A stretch of DNA of 64,000 nt, from IMG/VR virus record IMGVR_UViG_3300029288_004596, positions 32,001 through 96,000 of that record. One strand, given 5' to 3'. Below the pieces are notes generated by a model. It was not told where the DNA came from, did no database searches, and was given only the letters and a program-made list of their open reading frames with translations. How positions within the stretch are numbered: position 1 is the stretch's first letter; each line of letters begins with the position of its first letter. The DNA comes from a virus (taxonomy: Duplodnaviria; Caudoviricetes). Both the position numbers and the translations under genes were made by a program. This document shows positions 20,301 to 41,500 of this stretch, in pieces.

Positions 20301-21951
20301 CAGTAACTTCTCTGGATCTTTCAGCTGGATCTGCCAGAGTCCCTGGACCCACAACTACAGTCTTCTCTTCCATATAGGTTTCTTCTGGAAGTTCTAGTAG
20401 TGAACCATCAAAGATTCCGCCAGCGCTGTCACCCTCTGTGACTGGGAGGTTTAACGCGCTATAGCCAGTGGACTTGCCATTGAGATAGTCATACATGGAA
20501 GCTATTGTCTGGGCGTCGGCTATCCTCTTCTTTATAATGTCTATAGGCCTATAGAGTTCTTCCACTGTAGTCATGGCCTGCAGATACTCTTCTGTGGGAA
20601 TATAGAACCTTAGGTCTCCTGTAAACTGAGTCTTTCTTGTTTCCAGGCTGGGTTCCAATCCCAAAGTATTGGTCTTGGAGTCACACCACTTCATGAACAA
20701 CGGATAACAGAAGGAAGAGTCAAAGCTGGGACAACCCTGTATATACTGCTGCCAGTCAAACTTCTCAGCCTGCAGGGTCACTTCCAGCATGTTAGGATAG
20801 TTGGGAACTGTGGCTACCTGAAGACCATAGATAGCTATTGCGTCTATATCGTAGGTGTTGTTTAGCAAATCATTTTCTATTGGCAGGAAAGGAGTGTGTT
20901 CTACCATCCTTATCAGTGGAAGGAGAGAATTATTTATAGATGGGCCATCTGGCATAATAAACCTCATGGTTATGCTTTGCTCTGTGTGCCCAAATCCCTT
21001 GGCGATAGATCCCGCCGCTCTGAGCAGGGGCATCATCTCTACCTGAGACTTATTGCCAAAGACTATATCCTCTGGGGGAACATCCAGAACAGCGTATCCA
21101 ATCCTGGTGTAGCCTAGACTTTCTCTCATGCTGACTTCATCTTCTGTTTCCCTGAATGGTATGGGAGGAGCCAGGTACTCAGGTTCTGACTCAAAGATCT
21201 CAGACCAGTCAGTTTCCCCAATTTCAGTGACATCGTTTAATATCTTGTTTATAGTATGGGGTTCTTCTACCTTAGGATCTGCGGCTTTGTCCAACAACTG
21301 TTGGATATTCTCTACGTTCTTGTCTATGCCATTAGAGTGTTTAGAGTCCAGATTCTCCTGGAAGGAAAGGTTACTAGCAGTCTGCCCTCTGTTTATGCTC
21401 CCAGCGACTGACTCATTTAGAGCTTTGTTTGTCTTATCTATTCTATCTGTGGTATCTAAGTAGGACGCGTACAAGGTGCTGGCTTTAAATGGAGTCTTCT
21501 TGACTACAGGATCAGGGGGGAACAGCCTGAGGGAAGATTCTATGGCTTGGTCTCTTTCGCTCTTTGCATTAAACCTTTCAGTCTCATTCTGGTAGGAGTA
21601 CTCTATCATCCTGTTCCCGAGCTGATTGGTTGTGATAGATAGATTTATCTTTTTCTTATCAGTTTCTGGTATTTCCTTTAGGAGATTCTCAGTAGCTCTC
21701 TGAACATTGCAAGCCTTGACAGTCAGGTTTCTAGTGTGGGAGTCTGTAGTGGGAGGCAGGTTAGCCAGACTCTTATTCTTTATAAGTCCATGGTTTCCAT
21801 CATCTGTCAGGGTTACCACTACCAGGTCTTCTGACACTACAGGAGGAATATCTGTGGGCGTGAATCTGCAGACAGATCCGTCCCCTATCAAGGTTATCTC
21901 CTGAGCCGCAGGCCCATTTCTTTTAGTTACCAGTCCTAAGGCTTTCTTCAA
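14317..21951 (-). CDS. Giant baseplate hub/tail lysin with lytic transglycosylase (SLT, ~18230-18760) and C-terminal NlpC/P60-CHAP-like peptidase (~14320-14680) (2544 aa)
   Basis: SLT: LSIEGG, IGLGQL, AMAAYNCG, ETKNY. Peptidase: GDCGDYV...LEPGDII...QHFAMV. Hub-like segments RPGARVHIRIGYG..VFNGTI and IMGDPSIKPYDRIYL. Lies upstream of the spike genes. Confidence 0.85.
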   Translation of the reverse strand: MKKALGLVTKRNGPAAQEITLIGDGSVCRFTPTDIPPVVSEDLVVVTLTDDGNHGLIKNKSLANLPPTTDSHTRNLTVKACNVQRATENLLKEIPETDKKKINLSITTNQLGNRMIEYSYQNETERFNAKSERDQAIESSLRLFPPDPVVKKTPFKASTLYASYLDTTDRIDKTNKALNESVAGSINRGQTASNLSFQENLDSKHSNGIDKNVENIQQLLDKAADPKVEEPHTINKILNDVTEIGETDWSEIFESEPEYLAPPIPFRETEDEVSMRESLGYTRIGYAVLDVPPEDIVFGNKSQVEMMPLLRAAGSIAKGFGHTEQSITMRFIMPDGPSINNSLLPLIRMVEHTPFLPIENDLLNNTYDIDAIAIYGLQVATVPNYPNMLEVTLQAEKFDWQQYIQGCPSFDSSFCYPLFMKWCDSKTNTLGLEPSLETRKTQFTGDLRFYIPTEEYLQAMTTVEELYRPIDIIKKRIADAQTIASMYDYLNGKSTGYSALNLPVTEGDSAGGIFDGSLLELPEETYMEEKTVVVGPGTLADPAERSREVTVTTKSVKEKGVIVKVTSPHWLQLLHTQGAIKNVYSGTSRNLNDVYYSSETGLRYKKDKHGKLEITNAKLTDSELETLWKDLDAVAVPMGQSVLGRTGASTTTADQNTLFRLSHAVYWVEVDLKEVNDNKGAFNILKKGVETYAKKGEGEDKLKEATNRYQTKLKEMEDIKYESIEIEGLIPEQINAGMAPKIVKHETQGNEVGAMQCMGTGDVVFTISGSLESDEAAKKLKQMMEKLTYLVRTYQGKGIGTDTGYPGYLRISNELAAILGIDSLLPINCSIQTQPGFPGEHKFELAFVKFENENNSRENLKPMDDPNWYGNTMEGLQRTTDDPSNHAIRAEQLHSKLRTLELYPDMKLPTYKELFVWMQTMMEQGYDERWTAQEIREYLLPSITDKEGRLTYNAANAYVDPDFYCSPWVSFGKKLIDELSWDDAGKKNKTKITSNLIDATKAKATLDFNGKWKPDEKCQAQIGYYEEEYKKIKADMESSTSNVSKDIETAANSIGLQAKDLNEVIKQRGVPEGPAKVMLSIEGGASTVVNGTHNNNIGLGQLGNSALSTALKYSGKYNFVESGSGGTYTKGSSRLSYSTKSGYSSKSEVDPNDPRLDPLMAADLSLAYLTMKRDMVWEAAGRRIPKDSDECWIMAMAAYNCGDTRVKRIITDNLSNTATEQSLLEAVRSQVPNETKNYIDKAKGLLKTKETKEETLIPVNYGRSPFGFKEGHVDVTTSVPQMALAKRQEEKLRKTPKPEMPGAKMFPIDEMFLREDGLDMLYDMRNYSNVGRLVRAFPTYCLLLVDEGRWLRFWRLYDKFYGMNAVQSIEIHKTRKGPIDTAVIGFSNIFGRLSGLPVENPMVPGINYKWGLDYIIEGIIQGLFPSPSDYLEQWSMHANRLLLRPGARVHIRIGYGSNSNRLPVVFNGTITEQPAQEENLTVVALSDGRELTNVMSEGSYKSHSILGCAMEPREIINKVMSPIGLVELVTKGGYRHDNPYGISHFGSVSYATMDKHTQEIGVNIYRADPQGMESDVANAESSLWTRLDVLGLCRGFSTESLIGIKMDEATPWKVIDTCAKVTMDYVAAVHPFELRSTLFYGRPYWPVYYEYRADILAASRKAMTSEMKGLVKNPEDIDISKFPEKLMYWKPFSQFHIISSEHNLIANKIRTNAEVYTGCMAGGTSNSWFTTDNHQYWTEPWFLDTDIFPEYQRMMYIKSGLYSTQTQDVIEGIEQWDIARFIGWTTRKPDNNYAVGSLKTALKDMYDGHLVIMGDPSIKPYDRIYLSDTHIDMHGTIEVKEVTHHLSSEFGLVSTVSPDIMASATDAQDQLGIAWYGQLGRKIAGGMALRGLVTSYAVQLNQEALGKALLTLLIKIDAKGSQELKTLGLSVKDAIYKATMGNLKEIYKGSKSYESMEKLLFKIQAKGSKAVDVVDEWFTKLIADGKIGEVLKTYVSNEKNLSSLSEFLSKHESIADVWDFVANFWDRLETSLENTRIGRLVAKHGKEIETLATQKNEISKLKSVAENIKKDIDTLDKERIAKKKKITTLKTQKKIDETKKEAKSLYNKARYRQKKLDDVTKTIQEQEEALAANESTAAKLYRLQQTGRDVEPARKAYTEANEAYLKASKKVETLRAKTLPKESKFQTMDVIDVARKQTATEAAEATVRASKTYKDMMTAQEVLEGASTKLKEVEEVYAMSAQAIRGGTIKWLGNIRRGSITKMLTKAGIWFAVANSIADWIGRYLIRRQCIILFPLSFKGRKLVAGIDGHMGCVVGDHQGYWDSIISQFSLNQGMMEGWSRAQESYGLGGIFTKDFLKGAVAFTLFGVGVDVPEYEFDINYEEASGLPGGEVAAAKMLGPQRPAAPRLGTYTSGKKEVGMFTTTLDKRLDGRNWVEGDCGDYVTQLLKVMGAKDKSGKLIDVGDSRITAASDRCYKKWYPSANELEPGDIIALDYRTSKQHFAMVCRNSEGDLYLNECLNGNVQISRTLQSQASRISWYARPNY

Positions 21952-22901
21952 AATGCGTACCCCTTTGTAAGGTCATTTACAAACATCTCATCTATCCTCG
22001 CTTTGTCCATAGGGACATCAGCGTAGTTTATATTTATATTCATGTTGGGAGTAGCCATGGGATCCTCTTTAGTCTCCTCGCTTACGCTCATGCTCTCCTG
22101 TTTCTTTTTATACTGGATATTGCTGGTCACATTATCAAAGGCTCGTCCTATAGCTTTTAGACCTACGCTCATCCCAAACCACAAGGGAATGGATAGCAAT
22201 GGTCCTATGGCCATCCTGCCGCTCATCTTTAGTTTATCTTTCAAGGCTGAGTCTATGGCATCTCCCACTATGTCATGGGCCATGCCTCTCCATTCCCTGG
22301 CTTTCTCTACAGCTAAGGGATACTTGGAGAGTTTAGGTTTCTCCAGCCACCCAGCCATTGTATCCAGGACTTTAGATACAGTTCCCTTAGTAGTTTTGTT
22401 AGTTCCAAGGTATATCCCAGCCCTTCCGCCCAAGTAATCGGCTATTGGGTCTGTTATAGCAAAGGCTAACCCACCTATCTTTTCCTCATAGTTCTTGCCT
22501 ATAGCTAAGGAGACTACTCCTGAACCAAAGGCCGCATAGTATCTGCCCATGATAGAAGCGCTGACCCCAGACTTATATATGGCCCCTATCTTATCCATGA
22601 GGGCTCCCTCAGTTCTCATATAAGTCTTGATAGCGTCTATCCCCATGTATCCCCCAAAGATAGCTAGTCCTGAGAATGGGACCATGTACTCTGTGGGGTG
22701 CAGGATAGCTTCTGTGGTGGTGTCTACTCTTTCAGTGGCTAGGGTCTTCAGCACATCTGTGGTAGACTGATGCTTATATGGCAGTCTCCACTTTTCTTTA
22801 AAGTGCTGACCTACTTGGGATTCCAAGTTCTGGTGATACGAGTTTATCTGTCCACCCTTGGATACTATATGTGAATAATATGAGTCTTGGGGATTATACA
22901 T
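21948..22901 (-). CDS. Hypothetical protein with hydrophobic Gly/Ala-rich segments, possible ejected/membrane protein (317 aa)
   Basis: Hydrophobic stretches (PFSGLAIFGGYMG, IGPLLSIPLWFGMSVG); overlaps the start of the hub gene. Confidence 0.55.
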   Translation of the reverse strand: MYNPQDSYYSHIVSKGGQINSYHQNLESQVGQHFKEKWRLPYKHQSTTDVLKTLATERVDTTTEAILHPTEYMVPFSGLAIFGGYMGIDAIKTYMRTEGALMDKIGAIYKSGVSASIMGRYYAAFGSGVVSLAIGKNYEEKIGGLAFAITDPIADYLGGRAGIYLGTNKTTKGTVSKVLDTMAGWLEKPKLSKYPLAVEKAREWRGMAHDIVGDAIDSALKDKLKMSGRMAIGPLLSIPLWFGMSVGLKAIGRAFDNVTSNIQYKKKQESMSVSEETKEDPMATPNMNININYADVPMDKARIDEMFVNDLTKGYAF

Positions 22902-22906
22902 GGCGC

Positions 22907-22936
22907 AAAAAAAGTCCCTCTAGAAAAGAGAGACTT
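22907..22936 (-). terminator. Intrinsic terminator-like hairpin overlapping the RBS of 21948..22901
   Basis: Minus strand AAGTCTCTC-TTTTCTA-GAGGGACTT-TTTTT, then GCGCC ATG. Confidence 0.7.
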
Positions 22937-22941
22937 ATCAC

Positions 22942-22956
22942 TATATATTATAGCCT
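22942..22956 (-). promoter_or_regulatory. Putative phage promoter motif AGGCTATAATATATA (copy 2)
   Basis: Exact match to 14304..14318; a perfect 14-bp palindrome TAAGGATATCCTTA lies just upstream (22962..22975). Confidence 0.6.
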
Positions 22957-22979
22957 TAGATTAAGGATATCCTTAGAGG

Positions 22980-24947
22980 TTACTTTTTCCAGGTGTCTGC
23001 TATTTCCACTCCTATTTCTATAGGAACTCTAGGAAGGAACTCCTTTCCAGCCTTGATCATCATGCTCTCGACAATGTCAGCCACAGCCTTTATCTTGGGC
23101 TCAGGTCCTATGGCCACTATCTCATCGTGCACCCACATTATAATCCTGCACTCATTGGGGAAGTCGGATATCTTCTGGAGTTCCCTGTCTGCTAGGATAG
23201 TGGCTACCTTCATGATGTCCGCGTTGGAACTCTGGGCTCCATGATTCATGGCGGCTCTTTCTATGGAAGCCACCCTTTTCTCCCATTCCTTTAGTCCTTC
23301 AGCTGTGGTAGCGTCTCTAAGAGCTGGAGGATAATATCTTTTTCTTCCAGCTACAGATAAAGTGTATCCTACTCCCAGAGCCATCTTCTTTTGTCTATTG
23401 AGATATCTTCTGAGTCTAGAGTAGGTGCTGAAGTACTTGTTCATGATCTCTATAGCTTCCTGGAGTTCTATGCCATTCTGTTTAGCCATGGAACCAGGTC
23501 CTACTCCATAGGGAATGCCAAAGGTGGTGGCCTTGGATGTGGCCCTCTGTTCCTTGGTTACTTCCTTGGGAGGTATCTTGTATAGAAGGGAAGCTGTAGC
23601 TCTGTGGAAGTCTGTGTTGTATACTTCATCTAATATAGCTGTGAGTTCTGGATGAGCCTTCATGAACTCCTCTGAGTCTGGGAGTTTTTCCAGGCCATTC
23701 TTCTTCAGGAACTCTTTGAGTTTAGCGTTAGCTATATATCCTCTGTTGAAGACGTCAATCATAGTCTGGTCATTGGCTTCATTGGCTATGATGCGCACCT
23801 CTATCTGAGACATGTCAGCTATTACCACTTTGTATCCAGGCTGGGGTTTAATCATTACTCTATATGCGTTGGACCTCGGCAAATTTTGGGCATTGGGTTC
23901 ACTACTTGCGAACCTCCCAGTGCTTGTCTGGGTCTGATGGAAACTTGGGTGCACATTGTGGGTCACTGGATTTACCAGAGTTCTACCCCACTGTATGGGA
24001 TAGTCTATTTCCTTAGAGACTCTCCTGTGCTCCATGAGCAGATCTATTAATGGATCTCCCTTGTACTTCTCAAGCTCTTCTTTCTCGGTGCTTTCCAGTT
24101 CAAAGCCCATCTTTTCCAGGACATACTTCATCTGAGCGGTGGAACTTATGTTTAGTTTAGGGTCTCCTATGTGATCCAGTATCTTTCTTTCTATCTCCAT
24201 GAGTTCTTCTCTCATGGAGATTTCCAGTTCCCTGGCATATTCCATATCTACTGGTATCCCTAGGGCTTTGTTTATTCCTATGATAGGGATAAGGTGCCTT
24301 TCCATGTTATACCAGAGGTGGAGCATCTTCTCTTCTTTTAGTTTTTTGACCAGTTTATCTTTCAAATCTATGAGGTGCTCTACATCTCTAGCTGAATACT
24401 CTATCTGTCCATTAGTAAGAGGACTCTTCTTGGAGAGGGTGGCAAAGAGTTTCTGGCAGGTCTTATCCAATACTATTCCTAGTTCTCTTTCAAGACAGTT
24501 GTCCAAGCTTGCGCTTTCAGCTATCCTCCCAGCTCTTAGCATCTGAGCCATTACCAATGTGTCATAAGAAACATTGAGGGACACCCCATACTTTACATAA
24601 AACCATGGGAACTCAAAACTGGCATTGTGTATGATGCACTTTCTAGAGGCTATCTGGTTAATGAAATTAGAGACCTCCAGGTTCCTTGGGTCCACCACCT
24701 TGACCTTCTTGCCCCTTTCTTTAATGGCTATAAGGAATATGGTCTCTGTGTGGGGGTCAAGCCCTGAGGTCTCTATGTCTAAGGCTATCTCTTCGTCTAG
24801 TATTATGGAATCTAGTTTCTCTTGGGAGTCTATATACTCATAGAATTCTCCATCTCTTATCTTCTCTGGCAGTTGTGTCAGTCTTCTCCTAGTGTTCTCT
24901 ACCAAGGAAACCTCAAATAGACTTTCCTCTACCCTCTTATTTGCCAA
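22980..24947 (-). CDS. polA: Family A DNA polymerase with 3'-5' exonuclease (655 aa)
   Basis: Exonuclease: ALDIETSG, IIHNASFE, YSARDV. Polymerase: TSTGRFASSEPNAQNLPR, motif A ADMSQIEVR, motif B RATSKATTFGIPYG, motif C VHDEI. Confidence 0.95.
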   Translation of the reverse strand: MANKRVEESLFEVSLVENTRRRLTQLPEKIRDGEFYEYIDSQEKLDSIILDEEIALDIETSGLDPHTETIFLIAIKERGKKVKVVDPRNLEVSNFINQIASRKCIIHNASFEFPWFYVKYGVSLNVSYDTLVMAQMLRAGRIAESASLDNCLERELGIVLDKTCQKLFATLSKKSPLTNGQIEYSARDVEHLIDLKDKLVKKLKEEKMLHLWYNMERHLIPIIGINKALGIPVDMEYARELEISMREELMEIERKILDHIGDPKLNISSTAQMKYVLEKMGFELESTEKEELEKYKGDPLIDLLMEHRRVSKEIDYPIQWGRTLVNPVTHNVHPSFHQTQTSTGRFASSEPNAQNLPRSNAYRVMIKPQPGYKVVIADMSQIEVRIIANEANDQTMIDVFNRGYIANAKLKEFLKKNGLEKLPDSEEFMKAHPELTAILDEVYNTDFHRATASLLYKIPPKEVTKEQRATSKATTFGIPYGVGPGSMAKQNGIELQEAIEIMNKYFSTYSRLRRYLNRQKKMALGVGYTLSVAGRKRYYPPALRDATTAEGLKEWEKRVASIERAAMNHGAQSSNADIMKVATILADRELQKISDFPNECRIIMWVHDEIVAIGPEPKIKAVADIVESMMIKAGKEFLPRVPIEIGVEIADTWKK

Positions 24948-24948
24948 A

Positions 24949-27900
24949 TTATCCTCCCGCTAGTTTTGTCGCCATGTCGTCTATGTAGTTCTTATCAAAT
25001 ACAGTCCTGTTGTCCTGAGTGTTTACTGTGGGTTGAGCTGGGATAGGAGCGTTTGAACCAGCCCCTAGAGCTGTCTGTATGGATTCCACTAAATCATTAT
25101 GGGAGATGTGCTGTTCAGTGGTGCCGTCAACGCTTATTCTTATACTCTTATACTTGGGGGATATTTTGGTAGAGATGTCGTTGTGCTTCACTGATATTGG
25201 CATTTCTTTTTCTTCCACATTCTCCAAGTTTGGTTTTCTCATAGCTGCAAAGGCTGCCCCAGCCGCCATGATGGCTACTGGCAGTTTATGATCCGACATC
25301 CATTCCACTACTCTTGGGGCTGTCTCTTCTGCCTGGCTAACTATATTATACATCCCTCCGCTGAACTTTGTAAAGCTTGGTTGCGTGACTCTTTCTATGG
25401 CTAAAGGATCTATGCCCATGTCTCTATTGATATAGGATCTCACCAGGTTCCTGAGTTCAATGGGGTTCCTCCAATCAGAGGCCACCTTATCAAGTTCTCC
25501 TGGGGATAAAGAACCAATAATTCTGCCCTCTAAGTCCATGGCTTCTTCAGGGACGTTGTTCCATCCAAGGTAGTCCATTATGTTTCTTCTGGTGACATCG
25601 TCCAGATCTGGAGTAGCAAATATCTGTCTGCCTACTCTGTCTAAGGGAACTTCAGATAAGGGCTTGCCTTTAAATTCCTTAGCTATCCAGTTGCTGTAGG
25701 GCACTGTCAATGGAGGTCTTAAGGAGTTTTCCAGAACCTCATTTCCTATGCTCTCTATCTGAGCTGATTGAGCAGCCAGGTTATTCCTTCTATTCTGCAG
25801 GTAGTTGGAGAACTCTCCCTGAGTTAGCAGGTTGTACCTTTCTATATCTAGCAGGTGTTCTGGAGTTGAGCCTATTTTTAGAGCATACTCTCTGAGAGAA
25901 GTCGCCCCTCCTTGTATAGCTTCTAGTAGTTCAGGGTCTCCTATCTTCTGGGCTAGAGGAGTTCTCTGAGTAGCCAGGGCTGGAGCTATTGTTTCATTCC
26001 ATAGAGTAGCGCTGACTCTAGCTAAATCATCAGGAGGCATCTCCTTGCTTAGTCCCAGGACTGCTTTTTCTGTGTCAGACATATTGCCTATCAGTCTTCT
26101 GGAGATTCTCTGGACATCAGCGTCAAAAGCTTCAGCTGAACTTATGTTTATGCTTTCAGCGTTTGCCCCTAGGGCGTCTATGTTAAAGGAGAGTTTCCTA
26201 TTCCAAGTATCTATCCTTCTGTTGAGTCTCTCATAGGGAGCCAGCTCATCTACTCTGGACCAGTAGTTGGAAAGGATTTCCTTTTCCTGTTCCTTAGTGA
26301 AGTTGAGGGAGTTGAGTCTCTCATAGAATCCTCTATGAAAATCATTGTACTCATCCAGCCAGGCTTCTCGGACATAACCCATCTGTTTCTGGAGTCTCTC
26401 ATCATCCAAGAGACCAACATACTTGGTTACATCCTCTCCCCTTTGCTGTCTCAGATATATCTCATCCAGGTTCTCCAGCCTGTAGGCTTCATCAATTCCT
26501 GCGGCTGTGGACTCTCTGGCTCTTCTGATTCTTCTGCCCGCTAAGTCCTGAGCATATTCTATCCTAGCCTTAGTGCCTTCTTCCAGGGTCTCAAAGGTAT
26601 GGAACTGTCCCTGTAATCTGTTTACCAGATTATAAGTAGAGTCTGTCACTCTCACATACTTGTCAAGAGCATTGCCTCGGTCATCCAGTTCTCTTAGTAC
26701 AGCTGTACTGGAGTCCGAGAAGTCATAACCATGTATCTGGAAAAGTCTGCCTTTAGTGGAAGTCCCTTCTAAACCAAATAGATACTTGCCAGTGAAGGGA
26801 TCAGTTACTTCCTGACCAGAAATCCTAGACTGCAGAGCTCCTATTCTATTCATTAACTCTGCAGCTATATCTCTTGTAGTGGCTGCATCATAGACGCCTA
26901 TGTGTTCTTCTTTCCAGGTTCCAGCTCTAACACCAAGGTACTTGGCTAGGTTCTCTAGGCTATAACCTCCAGGTATAAGGTTGCCTGTCAAGTCCTCATA
27001 GACCTTAGCCAGCAGCATAGTGTCTATACTCTTGAGTCTTTTCTTTTCTAAGCTGGCTAATACTTCTGGGGGAAATCCCAGTTCCTGGGCTCTGGATATG
27101 AGAGCGTTAAAGTCAAACTGAATGTTGTGCCCGACTACATAAGGGTTTTCTCTTCCCAGCCATGAGGTCAGCTGTTCTATGCTTTCCTTCTCGGTGGTTA
27201 CAAAGTTAGGAGTATAGCCAGGAACCTTCTTTCCAAACTCATTCTTCCAGTTAGGGGCTTCTCCTACATTGAGAGCTCCTCTGTCATGACTGTAACCAAC
27301 CCCGCCAATGTTTGTTATCTGATTCTCAGGGTTGGTCTCTATATCTATATAGGTTCCATACTCTGACTTAAAATACTTTAACCTTTCCAGCATATCCATG
27401 TCAGAAAGAGGTATTACTGCTCCGTTAGCTAGCTTAACAAACTTAGCTTCAGTGGTCCTTGAGATATCAAGAGATCCTGGAGGAGGAGTGGAGGATATAG
27501 TGTATAGGTCCTTAAGTCCTAACTCTATTTCTTCTGGGTTCTTGTAGTAAAGGTTTCCATTATAGAGTAGCCCTTGTTCTGTCAGGGTACCCGTTCCCTC
27601 TAATCCTATAGTCTTATTCAGATTGAGGTTTATGCTATTTCTTACAGCGTTGATGGCTTCTTCTAGAGAACTTCTCTGAGCAAAGAGTTTGTCTACCTTT
27701 GACATATGGGTGGAAAGAGCCTGACCTGTTAGGTTTGCCGCTTCCCTCATAGCCGCGTCTATCTTGAGTTCTGTTTCCTGTATTCTCTGTAATAGGAGAC
27801 TAGCTTCCTGGAGTTTCTTCTTTGCGTTGCCACTGACAAGTCTTCCTAAGACAACCTCTAAACCTAGGTTATCCTCTCCAAGTATGGGACCTAGAGCTTC

Positions 27901-30378
27901 CATCATGGCTCTGAATCTGCCTTCAGTTCCCCATGACTCTCCAAGGATATTGCTCAGTCCCTGGATCGGAAGCACTTTCTTTCCTTCTATATCTAGGATT
28001 ATTCTTTTAGCTGGGTTAATCGCTTCGCTGGATCTGACTCTCAGGTCTTCTAAGGCAGAGACTTCAAATAGCTCGGAGGCTTCTTTGTATTCCTGGTCAG
28101 CTGGACTTATTCTCCACTTCCCTTTGGCTATTCTCTCCAGCTCTATCCGCACTACATCCCTGGGGTTGAAACCTCTGCCTATGTTCTCATACTTTTTGAG
28201 TCTCTCATCTAAGGCTAATAGTATATCCCCAGCTTCCGCGTTTATGTTTCTATTGGTGAGGTCAAAGCCAGCTTCTTTAAGGGCCGTTATCAGCGGGGCT
28301 CTCTCTAGGTTATTTTCAGTCACTCCCTGGCCAAGGATTCTTCCCGCTATACCCAGCTGTCTAAACTGCCATCTTTCCAGCTTGGAAGTTTGTCCAGCGA
28401 GTCCTATCAACCCAGGAACAGCTTCTTCTGATGCTGGGGCTATTCCCTGTTTTACCTTATATAAGTCTATCTGTCCTATAAGGTTATCTAGGACATCTTC
28501 ATCCATTCCCTGGGGTAGGACTATACCCACATCAAACTTGCTAAGAAGGACCTCGACATTGTTAGTGGGGACTCCATATAGTTTGGTTTCCCCTCCCTCA
28601 AGGGCTTTCCTAGTAATTCTGTATGGGACTTTTCCTACTGTGGCATACTTGGTTGTGCCAGCTGAGTAAGCCATGGCCTCTTCTATAAGAGCCGCTTTCT
28701 TAGAGGCTGTGGAGTGCGCCTCTTCCCATGAGGGTCTGGTGTAGATATCCCTTATGGTGTCTCCCTGTAGTCTTCTTTCACTCCATTCATTTTCTATATC
28801 ATCCCATGGTCCTCTGAAAACTTCATAAGGTCTTGTTTCTCTAAATTCTCTTTCATACTGGTCCACCTTCAGCCATTGCAGAGTTGGGTTTACTATGCCC
28901 TTGGTTAGATTCTCAGGATACTGTGCTGGGATTATATCCGCTACTGTGTTGGATATGTCTCCCATCACGCTGGATAGGTACTCTAGGGTTGAATCTATCC
29001 CATGGGCTCTGGATGCAGTGACAAACTTGGGAGATTTGGATGAGCCTATCAGGGCTCCTTTTTCATTGGCGTAGGAACTCCATTCTCCCGCCACTATGCT
29101 GTAACCTTTTGTTGTTCTCTGAGGAATGGTTGATTGACGAGCTTTGTTTCTTACGCTAGATCCAAACAGACTGGCATTCCCTGGGTCTGTGGCATAGAAG
29201 TCTCTATCAAAGGTCCCAGCATAAGTGTTGACTACCTGGTTGTACTCGAATCTGTTGGGGAACTCTTCAGCCATCATAGAGATGGCGTTCTCTATGTTAG
29301 CCCCAGTCAACCTCAACTTAGCCAATTCATTATTTAGTTGAGGTATGAGACCTCCTTTCCTCATGAGTTTCCTGGAGAGTCTCTCAGCGTATAAGTTGAT
29401 AGCCTGTCTATCCCCAGCCTTTAAAGCTCCAGCTAGATTAGAGATAGCTCTTATTACATCATCTGAATATGCTACTTTGGGTCTATCAAAGAGGGTGGCA
29501 AACTCCCTCCATATCCTGGCCTGCTCTGGGGTAGCGTTGCCAGCATGCGCGGCTTGCGCAGCCCCTATGATATTTTCCAGCCTCTGTCCAGTGAAGAGTC
29601 CTGAGAAATCTGAACTTGGGTTTACAAGTTTCCACACATCCATCAGGTTCTGAGCCTGCCAGGACTTGGACTCTATAAGAGTCTGGATATTCTTTTTCTT
29701 ATTGAGCAGAGTCCTAAGTCTTTCTTCTGCCGCATCAGACTCGCTCACATAATGTTTGAGGTCTCTAGCTCCATCTATTGGAGCGTTGGTGGATAATCCA
29801 AGGGTTGTTCTTCTGCTCTCATCCAGGATAGCGGCCAAGTCATTAACCACATTCCTAACAGTGGCGTTGCTTCTATCTGGTAGTTTCTGGAGGATATAAG
29901 CTCTGAGTCTAGCCTTGTCCACATTCCTGAGGTTGATGCCCATGACTCTGGAGGTTTCCATGCTGTCCGCTTCCAGAGCGTTTAACACCGCCAGGATATC
30001 ATGTTTAGTCTCTAGCCTGGGTTCATTCTCCACTTTCTTCCTGACAGCGTCTATAGAACTCTTGATAGTCCCTGTCTTCACATGGGTGGCTGGAGTCCCT
30101 GGGATATTCCTGGCCGCCATAGCCGCTTGGGCGTTGGCGGTGTAACTTCCAGCTATCCTGTTAGGTATGGTTTCTCTTATTGCTTTGGAAATATTCTCCA
30201 GGACAGGTCTTATGGAGTTGGCGTCTATAGGATATCTTTTGTAGGTGGAGTAGGCGGCATAGTAAACCGTGACAGCGATAAAGCCCTCGCTGATAGGATC
30301 AATCGAGGTTATCCTGCCTTCTCTTAAGGTTTGGTTGTCGCGTACTCGGTCTCCGACCTTGTAGTGTCTGTAGTCCAT
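24949..30378 (-). CDS. Giant protein with an internal DEDDh (DnaQ-like) 3'-5' exonuclease domain (~26860-27360) (1809 aa)
   Basis: YIDIETN, VVGHNIQFD, IDTMLLA, YSLENLA and EEHIGVYDAATT form a complete DEDDh set; N-terminal SH3/KOW-like YKVGDRVRD; the rest looks helical and is unassigned. Confidence 0.75.
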   Translation of the reverse strand: MDYRHYKVGDRVRDNQTLREGRITSIDPISEGFIAVTVYYAAYSTYKRYPIDANSIRPVLENISKAIRETIPNRIAGSYTANAQAAMAARNIPGTPATHVKTGTIKSSIDAVRKKVENEPRLETKHDILAVLNALEADSMETSRVMGINLRNVDKARLRAYILQKLPDRSNATVRNVVNDLAAILDESRRTTLGLSTNAPIDGARDLKHYVSESDAAEERLRTLLNKKKNIQTLIESKSWQAQNLMDVWKLVNPSSDFSGLFTGQRLENIIGAAQAAHAGNATPEQARIWREFATLFDRPKVAYSDDVIRAISNLAGALKAGDRQAINLYAERLSRKLMRKGGLIPQLNNELAKLRLTGANIENAISMMAEEFPNRFEYNQVVNTYAGTFDRDFYATDPGNASLFGSSVRNKARQSTIPQRTTKGYSIVAGEWSSYANEKGALIGSSKSPKFVTASRAHGIDSTLEYLSSVMGDISNTVADIIPAQYPENLTKGIVNPTLQWLKVDQYEREFRETRPYEVFRGPWDDIENEWSERRLQGDTIRDIYTRPSWEEAHSTASKKAALIEEAMAYSAGTTKYATVGKVPYRITRKALEGGETKLYGVPTNNVEVLLSKFDVGIVLPQGMDEDVLDNLIGQIDLYKVKQGIAPASEEAVPGLIGLAGQTSKLERWQFRQLGIAGRILGQGVTENNLERAPLITALKEAGFDLTNRNINAEAGDILLALDERLKKYENIGRGFNPRDVVRIELERIAKGKWRISPADQEYKEASELFEVSALEDLRVRSSEAINPAKRIILDIEGKKVLPIQGLSNILGESWGTEGRFRAMMEALGPILGEDNLGLEVVLGRLVSGNAKKKLQEASLLLQRIQETELKIDAAMREAANLTGQALSTHMSKVDKLFAQRSSLEEAINAVRNSINLNLNKTIGLEGTGTLTEQGLLYNGNLYYKNPEEIELGLKDLYTISSTPPPGSLDISRTTEAKFVKLANGAVIPLSDMDMLERLKYFKSEYGTYIDIETNPENQITNIGGVGYSHDRGALNVGEAPNWKNEFGKKVPGYTPNFVTTEKESIEQLTSWLGRENPYVVGHNIQFDFNALISRAQELGFPPEVLASLEKKRLKSIDTMLLAKVYEDLTGNLIPGGYSLENLAKYLGVRAGTWKEEHIGVYDAATTRDIAAELMNRIGALQSRISGQEVTDPFTGKYLFGLEGTSTKGRLFQIHGYDFSDSSTAVLRELDDRGNALDKYVRVTDSTYNLVNRLQGQFHTFETLEEGTKARIEYAQDLAGRRIRRARESTAAGIDEAYRLENLDEIYLRQQRGEDVTKYVGLLDDERLQKQMGYVREAWLDEYNDFHRGFYERLNSLNFTKEQEKEILSNYWSRVDELAPYERLNRRIDTWNRKLSFNIDALGANAESINISSAEAFDADVQRISRRLIGNMSDTEKAVLGLSKEMPPDDLARVSATLWNETIAPALATQRTPLAQKIGDPELLEAIQGGATSLREYALKIGSTPEHLLDIERYNLLTQGEFSNYLQNRRNNLAAQSAQIESIGNEVLENSLRPPLTVPYSNWIAKEFKGKPLSEVPLDRVGRQIFATPDLDDVTRRNIMDYLGWNNVPEEAMDLEGRIIGSLSPGELDKVASDWRNPIELRNLVRSYINRDMGIDPLAIERVTQPSFTKFSGGMYNIVSQAEETAPRVVEWMSDHKLPVAIMAAGAAFAAMRKPNLENVEEKEMPISVKHNDISTKISPKYKSIRISVDGTTEQHISHNDLVESIQTALGAGSNAPIPAQPTVNTQDNRTVFDKNYIDDMATKLAGG

Positions 30379-30920
30379 TAGAATAACGATAGCGGGTGTA
30401 GATCTTTAAGGGGTATACACTTGGCTGGGTATTTCAGTTTTTCATCCACTGGTATATCTTCTATAGTCTGAGCTGTAGTCCATCCAAGGACATAGCCGTC
30501 CCTGTTCTTAGGGTTATAGCCACAGCATATGTAGATATCATGAGAATTTTCCAGATCATAATCTGAGATCATGACTGTAAAGGTCTCCAGGTTAAGAGAA
30601 TCATCATAGAGCTTCTTCTTATTCTTAAGAATCCTAGGGGTGAGTCTCCTAGTCTTCACATAGATGTTCTTGTTATTCACTGTGTACTCCGGGGTCTCCC
30701 AGAAAGGGCTTATCCTTTCATAGTCTGTTCCCATGTAGTTGAGGAACTCCTCAAATAGGAAACCTCCTATGGAACTCACGGCTCCAATCCTGGAATCTTT
30801 CTTCCTTGTCAGATCATAGGCATGTTTCTTCCAGGTGTCAGCGCCTACCCTCACATAGAACCCTTCACTCAGAGGGTCTAATCTTTTTGCTCTCTTGTAT
30901 TTCTCTCCTAGTGTCGTCAT
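30378..30920 (-). CDS. Hypothetical protein, possible restriction-endonuclease-like PD-(D/E)XK fold (180 aa)
   Basis: G..FEEFL...PEYTVNNKNIYVKTR...YICCGY...YVLGW pattern; the acidic catalytic residues are atypical. Confidence 0.4.
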   Translation of the reverse strand: MTTLGEKYKRAKRLDPLSEGFYVRVGADTWKKHAYDLTRKKDSRIGAVSSIGGFLFEEFLNYMGTDYERISPFWETPEYTVNNKNIYVKTRRLTPRILKNKKKLYDDSLNLETFTVMISDYDLENSHDIYICCGYNPKNRDGYVLGWTTAQTIEDIPVDEKLKYPAKCIPLKDLHPLSLF

Positions 30921-35492: not shown

Positions 35493-35527
35493 ATTATAAG
35501 TGTATCAATAACTTCGTAGTGCGTCAA
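35493..35527 (-). promoter_or_regulatory. Candidate sigma70/sigmaA-type promoter for the inserted cassette
   Basis: TTGACG (35527-35522), 17-bp spacer, TACACT (35504-35499), immediately followed by TATAAT (35498-35493). Confidence 0.5.
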
Positions 35528-38500
35528 GCAAATCCTGCTCCCTTTTCTGCTTGATGGCTAAGTCCACATTAAGTTCATCATTGTTAAGGTTAGCGTCTTC
35601 ATTTGTGGCTATCACAATTCTCAGATTCTTAAGGCCCCTGCCAGAAAGTATCTTGTTTATCCTATCACTTATATCGCTGGAACTGCCGTATACTGTGGGA
35701 GTGTCTATGTTCTGGGTGTTCTGTTTGGCTTCATATATCTGAGAAGGATAGATACCAAAGTCCATTGGGTCCATTCCTTCTTCCACTATAGCCTTAGCCT
35801 TGATGTCATCCAAGTTCAGTCCCGGGCTCCATCCCTTCCAGTCCTTATCTGGCAGGGTATGGGTTTTGAAGTACTCTCTCAGCAACTTTCTCTGTGGAAG
35901 TCTCTTAGGGTCAATGCCCATGTAAGGTCCTATCAGTCTCTTCTGATAGTCAGGCATGAGCTTAAAGGCTTTCTCCCTCTCCTCAGGAGTAGACTGTGTT
36001 AGAAAGCCCTGTATGAACTCTCTTTCATACTTGGGGAATGCCGCCATCACATTTAGGAGAGGACCTCCAGGCATAGCCCCGTACATAGTAGCCGCATATT
36101 TATCTCTGTACAGCATAGCCTGATTGGTTAGTGGACCTAAGGCCAAAGTCTGCTTTCTCTCAGCCAGATTCTGTATTTCTTGTCTTATGCGCAGCTCTTC
36201 AGGAGTTCCTTTCTTGCCCTTCCTGAGTAGTTGCTGCCTTTGCTGTCTGAGCTTAGTGAGCTTTTCTTTTCTCCACTTCCCAAGGTTATTGTATCTGCTG
36301 TAGAGTCTGTCTACATCCACCCCTTCTTTTTCCTTGGCGAGTTCAGCAGTCCTTGCATATAAGGCTCTGTACTTCATGTACTTCAGTATATCAAAGTACT
36401 CTTCTATGTCTCTTCTCTTCTGGGTTCTCTTTGGCACCCACATATCATCAGTGTTATCCAGGACTCCCTGTCTTATGAGGGATAGTCCTGCTCCAGCCAG
36501 GGCTCCCCAGCCAGCGGCTTTCCATCTAAGATTTCTCTGGGAGAAGAAGAAACTGGAAAATAATCCAGCTCCAGCCGCTGCTCCTAAAATGCCTCTACCC
36601 ATGAAGGATGTGATAGAAGGATTTATAAACGATGAATAAGGAGCCTCCCACCTTGCGCTTCTGGATCCATAAGTCTGTCTCTCATATTCCTCATAAGGGG
36701 ACTTGACGTCAAGAAACTTTGTGTTTAGGATAGACCGCATGTGAGCCATGGATTCCCACTTGGCTCCCTTGCTTATTTCAATAGCTGAGAACCTGGCCCA
36801 TACTCCAGCCGCAGTCCACTCATTCTTCTCAGTTCCCACTCCACTTTCCAGGAGTTCTCTGTTTATATTCTTTCCATTCTTTATGATGACAGCATGCTGA
36901 GTTCCCAGGACATCATCTGAGTATCTGTTCTGCGGGTCTGCATTCACAAGAACTTTTATCACACTGCCCTTGTGCACTCCAAACTGGCTGAATAAATACT
37001 CAGCTGGCGTCATGTTTCCTTCAGGGGCACCATAAGCGTCAGTGATTCTCTCTATAGAGTTCCTTATCCCAGCTAATCTTAGAGGATGCTCATCTCCATA
37101 CACTGATATGGTGTTGGCGTCTATGATATCTTTTACTATGTATCTGTGGGTTTCTACATCAGCGTACTTGAATCTGTAGGGGTAGAAGTTATATCTTCTT
37201 TTCTGAAGAGTAGCCCTGTGCTTTGCCGCCTGCACTCTCTCATTCTCATTCTCTGTGAGCTGATCATTGTTAGCCATCTGATCCTTGAGGGCCAGGTATT
37301 CCATGGACCAGGGACTGGTATCGGCCAAGATCTCAAACCTGGTAACTGGATCATACAGAGTGGCTCTAGACACCTCTCCCCTTTCCACCATTCCCCTTAT
37401 GTCTTCTCTGGCCGCTTCCACTTTAGCTATGGTCTGGTTGAGCAGACTCTTGGAGAAGTCCACATTTATGAGCCTCACCTGATTAGGATCGTCCCTGTTC
37501 ACATAGGCTAGCATTCCTTTGTGTATTCCTGACTCATAGAGATAGAAGTTTAACTGTTCCATGTGCTCCTGGAAAGGCTGCCCTAAAGCAAACCTCTTGG
37601 CAGACATGGTCTTTATCTCAGCCACCACGTCTCCCTGCCCCATGTTCAGTATAGCATCCATGTGCCCTGTAATCCCAAGGGCTGGATCAAAGATCTCCAG
37701 TTCCTTACCCTTGAGGATTCCCATGTTATTCCACTTCCTCTGGATAGCTTTATGGGAAGCTGTGCCTTCTTCCATGACTCTTTCAGAGTAGGCTGAAGAA
37801 CCCTCATCATATCCCAGCATTTCCAGGATGAGTTGTTCTTTAGTCCTGCCAAGGGAAGAGGCCCTGGTCTGCATGAGTCTATTTCTATGGACTCTCTCAT
37901 AGGCTTCTCCTGGAAGTCTGACAAGTCCATTCTCTACCTTTGTATAAGGATCTCCTTCCTGGAAGTTAAGGAAGTAGTCTGACCCTGGCATAAAGGAGTA
38001 TTGCATGGAGTTGGGGACTGGATTGTAGCGCTCCACATTCCTAAGTTTGTGGGGCATAAACCTTCGGCCTATTTCTGAGAGTTCTCCCCCAAGACCTCCT
38101 AGGTTAGCATTCCAAAAGCGCTGCTCATAGGAGTAGGCTTCTCCTGTGTCCGCTATTACAGGACCAGTTCTCTGACCAAATGGAATTGAGGTTGCCCAGC
38201 CATAGAGACCAGTGTATTCCCTGGCTAAATATCCAGCCATCTCCATATCCGAGATGGTCCTCATATCCTCCAGGTCTTCTTCTGTGAACCCACCTGTCTG
38301 TTCAGCTAGTCTCTGCATCCTTGAAGGAGTTAGCCCAGCCCCTGTAGCCTTGAGGTTCCTGTTGATCCTCTCTATCTCCCACTTAGCCAGTCCCTTTATA
38401 TTGTTTCCTTTATCTCTGGTTCCTAAGTGAGAGGTATCTGTATCTATTTCCCCTATCTGTTCAGCGGCTATCCCTCCAGCTGGATTTACTGTGGCTATAG

Positions 38501-41500
38501 AACCTGCGGCTACTACTGTGTAAGGATCTCCTCCACCGCCAGTTCCCCCTCCCTTGAGGGACATGTTTATAGCTCTTATCCCTTCCTTGGCCTGGGTCTT
38601 GCCCATGTTCTCCGGGAGATATTCTGGGTATAGAACTCTTTCAGGTTTGAAGATCCTGCCTATAGTAGAGTTGACTAGTGGTCCCCATAGGGTTTCTCGA
38701 GTGGCTATTGGGCCGGACACTACATAAGGTCTGTCTGGGTTGTCCCCCATGGAGTGGCGCTGTTCCCACCACATAGGGTCTAGGAATCTCATCACTGGAG
38801 CTAAGGGGTGCCGGGGGGTAGGCAGCAGAGAGTGAGCCCAGTAAGCGTCTGACCTCATGTCAGCATTCTCAGCGTCCTGCCAGTTGGAGTAGGCCAGCTG
38901 ATATGGATCTGGCATGTAGTATTTTATCTTGTCCCCATAGATAGGCGATCTTGAGCCAAATAGCCACAGCCTTCCTCTCCTTACCGGGACATATCCTGAT
39001 TCTAACTGTTTTTTGGTATCCTCTGGAGTGGTGCCTGCAAGATAATTATCCATGCCTGGGTGGAGTTCATTGTATCTCTCCCAGTCATTGAGGTGTGAGA
39101 AGGCTATCTTGGCGTTGGCTCTTACATTGGCCTTTAGTTCATTAGGGGAGGTTCCAAAGAGGTTCTCTGATTCCCAGTTCACATAGTTCCAGGCTTCTAT
39201 TCCTAGTACAGCCGGTACTATTCTCTGCATTATCAGACCCCTGAGGATCTTGCCTCCAGAACCCATGGCCTCAGGTCCGAGTCCTAATCCGAAAGCTTCC
39301 AGAGGTTTATTGAGTCTTGAGTTGAAGAAGTACCAGGTGAGAGCTGACCTGGTCATATCCTCAGGATCATCCACTCCCCTCCATAGGGCAGTGGTATACT
39401 GTTTTATAGCTGTAGAGCCTGTGATATTGCTCAGGACATCAAAGAAGTTTCCTCCGTTTTGCCAGGCTCTGTTTATAGACTCTAGTATTGACTGGTGCTC
39501 TTTTATAAAAAGTCTCTGAGGACCATTGCTTATCTCAGGATTCCAAGTATCCCAATACCCGAGCTTGGCATCTACCATTGCTTCAGCAGTTAATCTTATG
39601 TCTTCTGAGATATGTTGCGAACCTACCAGTCCTTGATACGCTCCTCTAGCTCCTGATATTCCTGTCAGCTGATCTCCCAATAGATAACCATATCTGACAG
39701 CTAAGGCGTCTCTCGATTCATTGATAGGCACATCCAAGTTTACTATGATATCTTCGATTCCTCTTCCCAGCTGACCAGGACCACCTAGGTTTATATTTCT
39801 CAGAACCTCTTCTTTTATAAATTTCCTGGCAGTGTCATAGCCAGTGAGAGGTTCTTCTTTCCCAAGGAACATATCCACTAGAGGATTCACCGAGTTTCTA
39901 GCAGTCTTCTTCCCCAGGGTTCTGGCTGGGTCCCTGTCAAACTCCTCAAGGAAGTATCTGAACTCATCTGACCTTATAGCTTTTCTGTCTACATTTAATA
40001 GATAATGCAGTAGATGGCTGTTGGAATCCAGGTTATTGGCAGCTACCCTGAGATCTATAGGGAGATAGCCCCCATTGGCCGTCACATCATCTAGGATTCC
40101 TTCCAGGACATTCTGAGATATATTGCCTTCCTTTTTCAGGAAGTTTACCACAGACCTTATGGATTCTATATTTCTTACAGGATCAAAGTCTGGGTTGTTG
40201 TATATATCGTTTAACGCAGCGGCTGGGTAAGTGGAACCTGGATTCATCTTGGCGAATATGGATTTTACTTTCCCAAACCATGACTGCTCTCTTTGATTGA
40301 GTTGCAGAGTTCCTCTAGTCCCACCATGTCCAAATCCCAGCGCTCCTCTGACTCCTCCGGTCTTAGGGGTGTCAAGATAGTCTGTGAGGTTCTTGTAGAT
40401 GTCTTCCACAAATCCGCTATCCGCAGTTAAAGAAGTGTAGCCTTTGCCCAGTTCTCCTATAGAAGCGTTGCCCAGTTCTGAGAACCTGGAACCTATAAGA
40501 GTGTTGCCAGCTATAGTCAGGTCCTGCCCCTGAGCCGCCAGGTGCCTAGTGAGAGGCTGTCTAGCCACAGCGTTCTGGTGGATAATATCAAAGGTTCTCC
40601 CAGTTCCTCCTTTTAGCCAGCCAAAGAACTGAGTTGGGGAGAAACCTTCCAGGTATGGGAGCACTGGGATCTGCATGTTCTGGTCTACCCAGTCTATAGC
40701 TCTTCCTAGAGTTTCCTTGAAACCTCTCAGGTCTCTGACAGTTCCTTTTTCATCCATCCAGATCTGCCCTACAGCAGTGGAGTTTATTATATCCTGAAGA
40801 CCTTCTCTGTGCCCTGATAAACTCAGGGAGGCTCTTAATCTCGCTGAGGATTCCTGAGCCTGCCTCACCACATCTGCTGAGAACCTGTCTCTATTGGAGA
40901 GCACGTCATTGACAGTGACTCTTCTAGCTCCCAGCTGCTCCATGAGAGCGTCCATGTAAGTGGGGCCTCTCCCAGCAGCCATGTTGCTAGCTTTGGCCTT
41001 GGTGACGACTCTTCTTTGCAGAGCGTCTATAAACGCTTCCGCATGGACTTCTCTGGCTCTCTGCAACTGGGCTCTAAGATTATCTGACAGAGGAAAATCT
41101 TTATTGAACAGGGTTGTCAGATTGCTTTGGTCAAAAGCTCTTTCCAGATTCTTCTGGATCTCCGGTATGTTTCCTCCAACTGAGGCCACGAAATCCCTGT
41201 AAGCGTCTTCCTGAATGACGGAACTTCTAAGGGTTCCTCCATGCAGCCACTGGTTTATTCTTGAAGAAGGAGCCACTCCCCTATTGTATCCCAGGAGCAG
41301 GTCCACCTGTTCTCTGGAGAACACTCCTGTGGCTCTGAACCTCTCTTCAGCCACCTGCTGTCTCAGCCTCAGAGGCAGAGTCTCTGACATAGCCGCTCTT
41401 ATCTCATTGGATAAGTTGGTTATGGAGAGGTTTCCTAGCTTCTCGGAACCGGTGGCGAACTTAGACACAAAGCGTTCTACGCCATTTATGATGTAGCCGC

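Follow-up and report, generated by a model that had tools for sequence, protein, structure and literature searches.

A DEDDh exonuclease domain in a family of giant, cysteine-poor proteins encoded among jumbo myophage tail genes

What does a proofreading-type exonuclease do inside a giant protein that is encoded among the tail genes of a phage? The gene that raises this question lies in a 64-kb stretch of DNA (hereafter, the window) that corresponds to positions 32001-96000 of one virus contig, 216,899 bp in length (IMG/VR record IMGVR_UViG_3300029288_004596) and carries all its large open reading frames (ORFs) on the minus strand. PHROG scans of the window detect portal, major head, sheath, tube and baseplate wedge proteins and a 2,544-amino acid (aa) hub-type protein, and these matches identify the element as a jumbo myophage. 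An original prediction, read from the letters of the window, held that a 1,809-aa protein encoded here combines a complete DEDDh exonuclease with long unassigned sequence, and that it is a virion-borne, ejected protein with nuclease cargo. We find that the first of these claims holds and that a modified form of the second is probable.

A complete DEDDh exonuclease domain in a giant protein

The gene is a single ORF, and profile searches and fold comparison agree in confirming that a complete DEDDh (DnaQ/epsilon-type) 3'-5' exonuclease domain spans residues about 1001-1189 of its product. The DIE, HNIQFD, IDT and H....D motifs singled out in the original prediction are all in place, at aa 1012-1014, 1084-1089, 1118-1120 and 1159-1164 (nucleotides (nt) 26887-27345 of the window). 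They correspond to Exo I (Y-I-D-I-E-T, with D1012 and E1014; nt 27337-27345), Exo II (G-H-N-I-Q-F-D, with D1089; nt 27112-27114), an I-D-T motif that contains D1119, and an Exo III of the His subtype, H-x4-D (H-I-G-V-Y-D, with H1159 and D1164; nt 26887-26904). In a MAFFT alignment of 19 family members (see below), with a mean identity to the query of about 18-25%, D1012, E1014, D1089, D1119, H1159 and D1164 are invariant in 19/19 aligned relatives, and N1085 is present in at least 90% of them. Such invariance of the full DEDDh set among 19 relatives that are only about 20% identical argues that catalysis has been retained.

The domain is recognized by several profile collections. PHROG 17 and 192 (DNA-polymerase/exonuclease) match aa 1010-1179 with E-values of 4.3e-10 and 1.2e-8, the NCBIfam epsilon and PolC models match the domain at about E 1e-5, and a profile of the family, run against the sequences in the PDB, retrieves the PolB, PolC, DinG and Cas2-DEDDh exonucleases (E 4.5e-8 to 2e-4), with no match outside the exonuclease region. 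Pfam yields no match at 0.01 for the whole protein, and the domain scores 13 bits versus a cut-off of 23.6. In an AlphaFold model of aa 850-1809, built with 19 homologues (mean predicted local distance difference test score, pLDDT, 67), the exonuclease domain reaches a pLDDT of 72-91 over most of its length, with one low-confidence loop. VIA-align matches this model to the Pol II exonuclease (Z 14.0), to ExoI (Z 13.6) and to Escherichia coli epsilon (1j53; Z 13.6, root-mean-square deviation (rmsd) 2.4 A, 138 residues), and Foldseek retrieves RNase T and DnaQ (E 4e-4 to 2e-3). Other DEDDh folds follow at similar Z-scores, namely RNase T (12.5), Cap18 (12.2), REXO2 (10.4) and diDNases (10.1-10.5).

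With DnaQ/Pol III epsilon, PolC and DinG-N (Pfam RNase_T, PF00929), the domain shares Exo I-III with the histidine, a D-T-x-x-L-A motif and the fold. Unlike those proteins, it resides in the third quarter of a giant chain, has no polymerase or helicase partner domain, is free of cysteine, falls below the Pfam gathering score and is encoded outside the replication module. A degenerate family B polymerase located after the exonuclease was considered, as suggested by Foldseek alignments to Pol II and RB69 over 350-610 columns, and rejected: the rmsd is 18-30 A, VIA aligns the exonuclease alone, and there is no downstream invariant carboxylate pair.

Column conservation of the giant peaks at aa 1-50, 1000-1450 and 1700-1809 and is low over aa 50-950. 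Outside the enzyme core, no block is better conserved than the small N-terminal beta domain (column conservation 0.48), which has strands at aa 11-40 in a second AlphaFold model, of aa 1-1200 (pLDDT about 55-65 for these strands). The spacer that follows has a column conservation of 0.18-0.31, a pLDDT mostly below 50 and a mainly helical DSSP assignment; the model of aa 1-1200, at pLDDT 49, was too poor for a fold search. A confidently predicted globular core of ~650 residues (aa about 980-1650) begins with the exonuclease and continues with domains that include an invariant D-L-A-x-x-R-x-R motif (D1278, R1283, R1285) and an invariant R1328; for these domains (aa 1190-1650), neither a family-profile search of the PDB nor a search of the ESM Atlas (aa 1190-1660) found a known fold. 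More generally, the protein outside the exonuclease domain has no match in Pfam, PHROGs, PDB or ESM Atlas, and no Walker A, H-x-H, HExxH or further catalytic motif was found. The hydrophobic segment near the C-terminus that the original prediction pointed out, PVAIMAAGAAFAAM, occupies aa 1700-1713 and belongs to an Ala/Gly-rich helix located in a predicted disordered stretch between the core and the C-terminal module.

A family of giants and its link to gp146 of phage 0305phi8-36

Direct searches with the giant found no relatives: tblastn of the 1,809-aa protein and of an orthologue described below against 50,697 phage records detected no similarity, megablast of the region and phmmer against the PDB returned nothing, and a word-based search of 5.8 billion proteins retrieved the protein itself alone. 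Through a relative of the neighbouring DNA polymerase, we reached a 211-kb viral contig (L001) that encodes an orthologue of 1,949 aa in a syntenic position; the two proteins share 31% identity across their last 1,000 residues. A profile of these two sequences, searched against 1.8 billion representatives, retrieved 21 proteins, most of them 1,750-2,434 aa long and some encoded on contigs of 209-538 kb. Judging from these profile matches, the protein is not an orphan but a member of a family of giant proteins.

Gene context was compared for four of the metagenomic members, those encoded in the window, in L001, in a 143-kb contig (L006) and in a much more distant 211-kb contig (L016; 21% identity). 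All four share the same core order: a giant resembling gp145 of the Bacillus thuringiensis phage 0305phi8-36, a homologue of the 180-aa protein encoded upstream of the giant in the window, the exonuclease giant, a homologue of a 317-aa protein, and the baseplate hub. The family A DNA polymerase (PolA) of L006 carries an intein-like insert. In L016, the giant and the 317-like gene are not separated by a PolA gene. The original prediction, which placed the gene between a tape-measure-like giant and the hub, is borne out for the 2,031-aa giant, except that the gene adjoins neither of the two, with other genes interposed. Synteny of the homologues with tail genes, named in that prediction as a check, was seen in every relative examined; homologues in replication modules, which would have spoken against it, were not found, the replication module of this phage lying ~150 kb away.

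The corresponding position in cultured phages is occupied by giants of comparable size. In 0305phi8-36, WH1 and KLEB27-3, the gene between the gp145-type giant and the hub encodes a protein of 2,434-2,537 aa and directly precedes the hub gene. In 0305phi8-36, this is gp146 (ORF146, ABS83704.1), a 2,537-aa 'hypothetical tape measure protein' with a GenBank note that reads 'identified as virion protein by mass spectrometry'. WH1 gp095 (2,515 aa) and KLEB27-3 gp034 are annotated as "virion structural protein"/"structural protein"; we found no papers on WH1 or KLEB27-3, so these labels are known here from annotation. In Moorella phage MTATph1 (L005:13744-15231), the gp146-type gene appears to be split into CDS0027, which contains the exonuclease part, and CDS0031, which contains the C-terminal module; a transposase-containing insertion lies between the two parts.

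Hardies et al. assigned gp146 as the tape measure mainly from tail length, and only its last 60 residues were alignable to the BtI1/BwK1 counterparts (PMC2147016). We built a hidden Markov model (HMM) from the C-terminal 140 residues of the 21 metagenomic proteins and searched it against 2,335 six-frame ORFs drawn from the genome and the fetched loci. It matches KLEB27-3 gp034 (E 1.1e-8), Moorella CDS0031 (3.7e-5) and gp146 (3.8e-4), and no other ORF among the 2,335 falls below E 1. In hhalign comparisons, the alignments likewise fall at the extreme C-termini, both to the WH1/KLEB27-3 pair (E 3.3e-5, probability 72%) and to gp146 (E 6.9e-4, probability 27%). BLASTP against gp146 remained at noise level, without pairwise similarity, and the link is seen with profiles and folds alone. 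Among BFVD structures, the best match of the aa 850-1809 model is A0A7R7G2L5_1 (E 5.6e-11, 911 columns, template modelling (TM) score 0.37), and the next is A7KUS0_2 (E 3.1e-8), with TM-scores of 0.22-0.37 for a model of mean pLDDT 67. The entries are nameless; from half-protein lengths of 1,257/1,258 and 1,269, we infer that they represent WH1 gp095 and gp146, respectively.

DEDDh motifs can also be traced in the giants of the cultured phages, in whose public records no exonuclease is annotated. Moorella CDS0027 matches Pfam RNase_T at 24.2 bits, D-x-E, N-x-x-[FY]-D and H-x4-D are recognizable at aa about 100-370 of the WH1 and KLEB27-3 giants, and in gp146 a long insert separates Exo I (residues 1223-1225) from Exo III (1685-1690). 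Like the window protein, gp146, WH1 gp095, KLEB27-3 gp034 and the MTATph1 pair CDS0027+CDS0031 are giant and cysteine-free and are encoded between a gp145-type giant and a gp27-like hub, and the gp146-type proteins have the hydrophobic helix and the 60-residue C-terminal module in common with it. The Bacillus proteins differ in being 600-700 residues longer and in carrying the exonuclease elsewhere in the chain, and in the clade of the window phage, unlike in the gp146 phages, a 317-like protein has a gene of its own between the giant and the hub, joined in one subclade by PolA.

Cysteine content is a further trait of these proteins. The 1,809-aa protein has no cysteine, and its 21 family members have 0-2 each, as compared with the 0.71% average for proteins of the window, which translates into about 13 cysteines expected in a chain of this length. 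Cysteine is likewise absent from gp146, WH1 gp095, KLEB27-3 gp034, the gp145-type giants and the 317-aa protein, whereas the first PolA of the window has four cysteines, the SbcD-like nuclease seven and the 180-aa protein three. In this respect, the giants stand out from the enzymes encoded near them. Such a cysteine-poor pattern fits an extracytoplasmic route or refolding after passage through a narrow channel.

The giants of WH1 (gp095, L009:7426-14973; aa 1958 and 1996) and KLEB27-3 (gp034, L004:9451-16755; aa 1893 and 1933) both contain the motif N-R-Y-P-T-I-N followed, ~33 residues on, by K-A-D-[HY]-D-G-D, an arrangement known from the catalytic double-psi barrel in the RNA polymerase beta-prime subunit. 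Pfam RNA_pol_Rpb1_2 matches this region only at E 0.015, and a profile search of the PDB retrieved no polymerase. From its motifs, the region may be a virion RNA polymerase module. The D-x-D-G-D region is absent from the 1,809-aa protein and from gp146.

Possible roles of the giant at genome entry

Taken together, homology, synteny and composition suggest that the 1,809-aa protein probably resides inside the virion, in association with the tail, and delivers an active exonuclease to the host, and its membership in the gp146-type giants of 0305phi8-36-like jumbo myophages is part of this best explanation. In the mechanism that we propose, the C-terminal module would dock the protein on the hub, the hydrophobic helix and the spacer would correspond in behaviour to the membrane-active and ruler segments of tape-measure or ejection proteins, and the chain would travel inside the tail or leave through it at infection. 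The cysteine-free core would then refold in the cell, and the exonuclease would attack 3' ends just as the genome enters. The likeliest substrate would be the termini of the incoming phage genome, perhaps with the Cas4-like 5'-3' nuclease of the 2,031-aa giant acting on them as well, because the closest sequence relatives of the domain are DNA-proofreading enzymes and because the partner giant carries that nuclease. Of the original prediction's view of the protein as ejected nuclease cargo, association with the virion is supported by homology and tail synteny; that the two giants form an injected nuclease set stays at the level of what we infer.

Several observations weigh against this proposal. 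Within the family, detection in virions applies to gp146 alone, and the window phage is linked to it by homology; the sequence link to gp146 is weak (see the HMM and hhalign values above), and the naming of the BFVD entries depends on a match of chunk lengths. None of the 19 members matches a tape-measure family of Pfam or PHROGs, and the hydrophobic helix is moderately hydrophobic (Kyte-Doolittle (KD) value 0.96 over 19 aa). The folded core of ~650 residues is too large for the lumen of the tail tube, which calls for the assumption that the protein is stored unfolded or at another site (the baseplate or neck, or the head). Finally, the 1,809-aa gene is translationally coupled to the gene for the first PolA, with the GGAGG ribosome-binding site of the latter inside the last codons of the former and a common terminator after both, an arrangement that would fit cytoplasmic DNA repair as well.

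The last point, along with the SbcD-like and Cas4-like nucleases encoded in the same gene block and the conservation of the giant-PolA order in three phages at 25-45% identity, is what speaks for a non-virion repair or recombination factor that would work in the cytoplasm with the first PolA and the SbcD-like nuclease, its position among tail genes being accidental. We consider this unlikely: L016 has no PolA after the giant, no PolA match was found in 0305phi8-36, KLEB27-3 or MTATph1, the giant is depleted of cysteine whereas PolA and SbcD are not, and the C-terminal module and the putative fold match tie the giant to a protein detected in virions. The distribution of PolA further implies that the exonuclease predates the polymerase and is independent of it; on this distribution, the first PolA is evidently an old insertion in one subclade and not the reason for the exonuclease. 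As the original prediction stated, the adjacent polymerase has a proofreading domain of its own (Pfam DNA_pol_A_exo1, 4.9e-18). A second PolA (G000:C1:204522-206228), 25% identical to the first and also equipped with an exonuclease domain, belongs to the replication module at 196-206 kb, about 150 kb from the 1,809-aa gene, which includes in addition a clamp loader, clamp, Toprim/DUF3854 protein, UvrD helicase and methyltransferase; the L001 genome has both PolA copies as well. Given that the replication module is elsewhere and that both PolA copies have their own exonuclease, a role of the giant as an epsilon-like replicative proofreading subunit is not supported.

The evidence for virion association applies equally to a protein that is ejected but targets host DNA or RNA, or nucleotide defence signals, as a first strike or in counter-defence, and the DEDDh fold is also near that of RNA and oligonucleotide enzymes (RNase T, Cap18, REXO2, diDNases). 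The best sequence matches of the domain are, however, of the DNA-proofreading type (the epsilon, PolC, DinG and PolB exonucleases), and a tail-internal protein is expected to be present in only a few copies per virion; we assign this alternative, too, a low probability. Less probable still is a structural tape measure or assembly protein, in which the exonuclease fold would be a scaffold or would be active in the producing cell alone, for instance while tails are being assembled, and would have no function once ejected. The naming of gp146 from its length (PMC2147016) and the resemblance of the N-terminal 900 residues to a helical spacer are in keeping with such a role, but the invariance of the five catalytic residues and D1119 in 19 sequences is hard to explain without catalysis. 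A pure ruler is also disfavoured by lengths that vary from 1,756 to 2,434 aa and by the shifting position of the exonuclease, at aa about 100-370 in WH1 and KLEB27-3 and at about 1000-1190 in the window protein.

If the giant is indeed ejected cargo, a broader and distinctly more tentative generalization is that the giant encoded before the hub is more than a ruler and serves as a delivery vehicle for nucleic-acid enzymes in 0305phi8-36-like phages. It would always carry an active DnaQ-type exonuclease, in some lineages also other modules, such as the RNA-polymerase-like D-x-D-G-D region of WH1 and KLEB27-3, and with a gp145-type partner bearing a Cas4-like nuclease it could form an injected DNA-end-processing machine that operates on the incoming genome before phage gene expression.

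The concept of a huge virion-internal protein that exits via the tail with a catalytic cargo active during DNA entry or shortly afterwards has precedents in T5 pb2, a tape measure with fusogenic and muralytic activities (work cited in PMC4870245), and in the giant virion RNA polymerase of N4 (PMC13434306). The cargo in these cases is a cell-wall enzyme or an RNA polymerase, in contrast to the DnaQ-type exonuclease of the window protein, and we found no paper on a DnaQ-type exonuclease in a tail or ejection giant. Injected proteins decide the first seconds of infection, and the known cargos are few: RNA polymerases, cell-wall enzymes and anti-restriction proteins. In a tail-module giant, a conserved and apparently active proofreading-type exonuclease would, if our reading is right, constitute a new cargo class and could explain how genome ends are prepared or protected in long-tailed jumbo phages. 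It would also revise the 2007 "tape measure" label of gp146, which was mainly length-based. The family includes the cultured Bacillus phages 0305phi8-36, WH1, Edson and KLEB27-3 and is therefore accessible to bench experiments.

Neighbouring genes and features of the locus

The tail genes of the window begin with the sheath gene, followed by three tube-like and two small genes and then, in order, by the 2,031-aa giant, an SbcD-like gene, a 305-aa gene, a ClpP-like gene, IsrB, the 180-aa gene, the 1,809-aa gene, PolA, the 317-aa gene and the hub (see the table for coordinates). The two small genes (232 and 186 aa) are, by position, candidates for a tail chaperone pair, and this putative pair precedes the 2,031-aa giant, not the 1,809-aa gene. 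The chaperonins of 0305phi8-36 are, likewise, one gene removed (PMC2147016).

Table. Coordinates in the window of the 1,809-aa gene, its regions and neighbouring features
Feature	Position	Strand	Remarks
2,031-aa giant	35505..41600	(-)	cysteine-free; 0305phi8-36 gp145 homologue; Cas4-like nuclease insert
ClpP/prohead-protease-like gene, 157 aa	32717-33190		PHROG head maturation protease, E 5e-15
180-aa gene	30378..30920	(-)	stop overlaps start of 1,809-aa gene (TAATG)
1,809-aa gene, whole	24949..30378	(-)	single open frame; no cysteine
aa 1-50	30229..30378	(-)	small conserved N-terminal beta domain, V-G-D-x-V-R-D-x-Q-T-x-x-E-G-R
aa 51-980	27439..30228	(-)	mostly helical spacer, tape-measure-like in character
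aa 1001-1189	26812..27378	(-)	DEDDh (DnaQ/epsilon-type) 3'-5' exonuclease domain
aa 1190-1650	25429..26811	(-)	conserved globular region: beta domain, then helical domains; pLDDT 70-94
aa 1698-1714	25237..25287	(-)	Ala/Gly-rich hydrophobic helix; in all family members
aa 1742-1809	24952..25155	(-)	C-terminal strand-helix-strand-helix module
Family A DNA polymerase no. 1	22980..24947	(-)	own exonuclease domain
Terminator-like hairpin and T run	22912..22936	(-)	between PolA and 317-aa gene
317-aa gene	21948..22901	(-)	cysteine-free; Gly/Ala-rich hydrophobic segments
Baseplate hub, 2,544 aa	14317..21951	(-)	0305phi8-36 gp147 homologue

The 180-aa protein has no family match, and its relatives are encoded upstream of the giant in L001, L006 and L016; it could be a dedicated chaperone or partner of the giant. 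The ClpP-like protease could process the giants. Its gene, which is kept in L006, is far away from the portal and capsid genes, in the part of the tail module that separates the two giants.

Between PolA and the 317-aa gene (22902-22979), a -10-like TATAAT is followed by a 10-bp hairpin with a T run, 5 nt from the end of which the ATG of the 317-aa gene follows; this gene lacks a Shine-Dalgarno sequence. This intergenic stretch looks like a boundary between transcription units, with PolA on one side and the 317-aa and hub genes on the other.

A C-terminal signal common to the giant and the 317-aa protein was considered and rejected, given that the HMM of the giant C-termini misses the 317-aa protein and, in the reverse test, an HMM of the 317-like family found no giant below E 0.8. 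Proteins of the 317-like family are 251-968 aa long, cysteine-free and always encoded immediately before the hub, with hydrophobic stretches rich in Gly/Ala and with the last 35 residues conserved; their loci are 21948-22901 in the window, L001:11966-14872, L006:18764-19519 and L016:16233-19052. In the L001 protein, the N-terminal motif is repeated internally.

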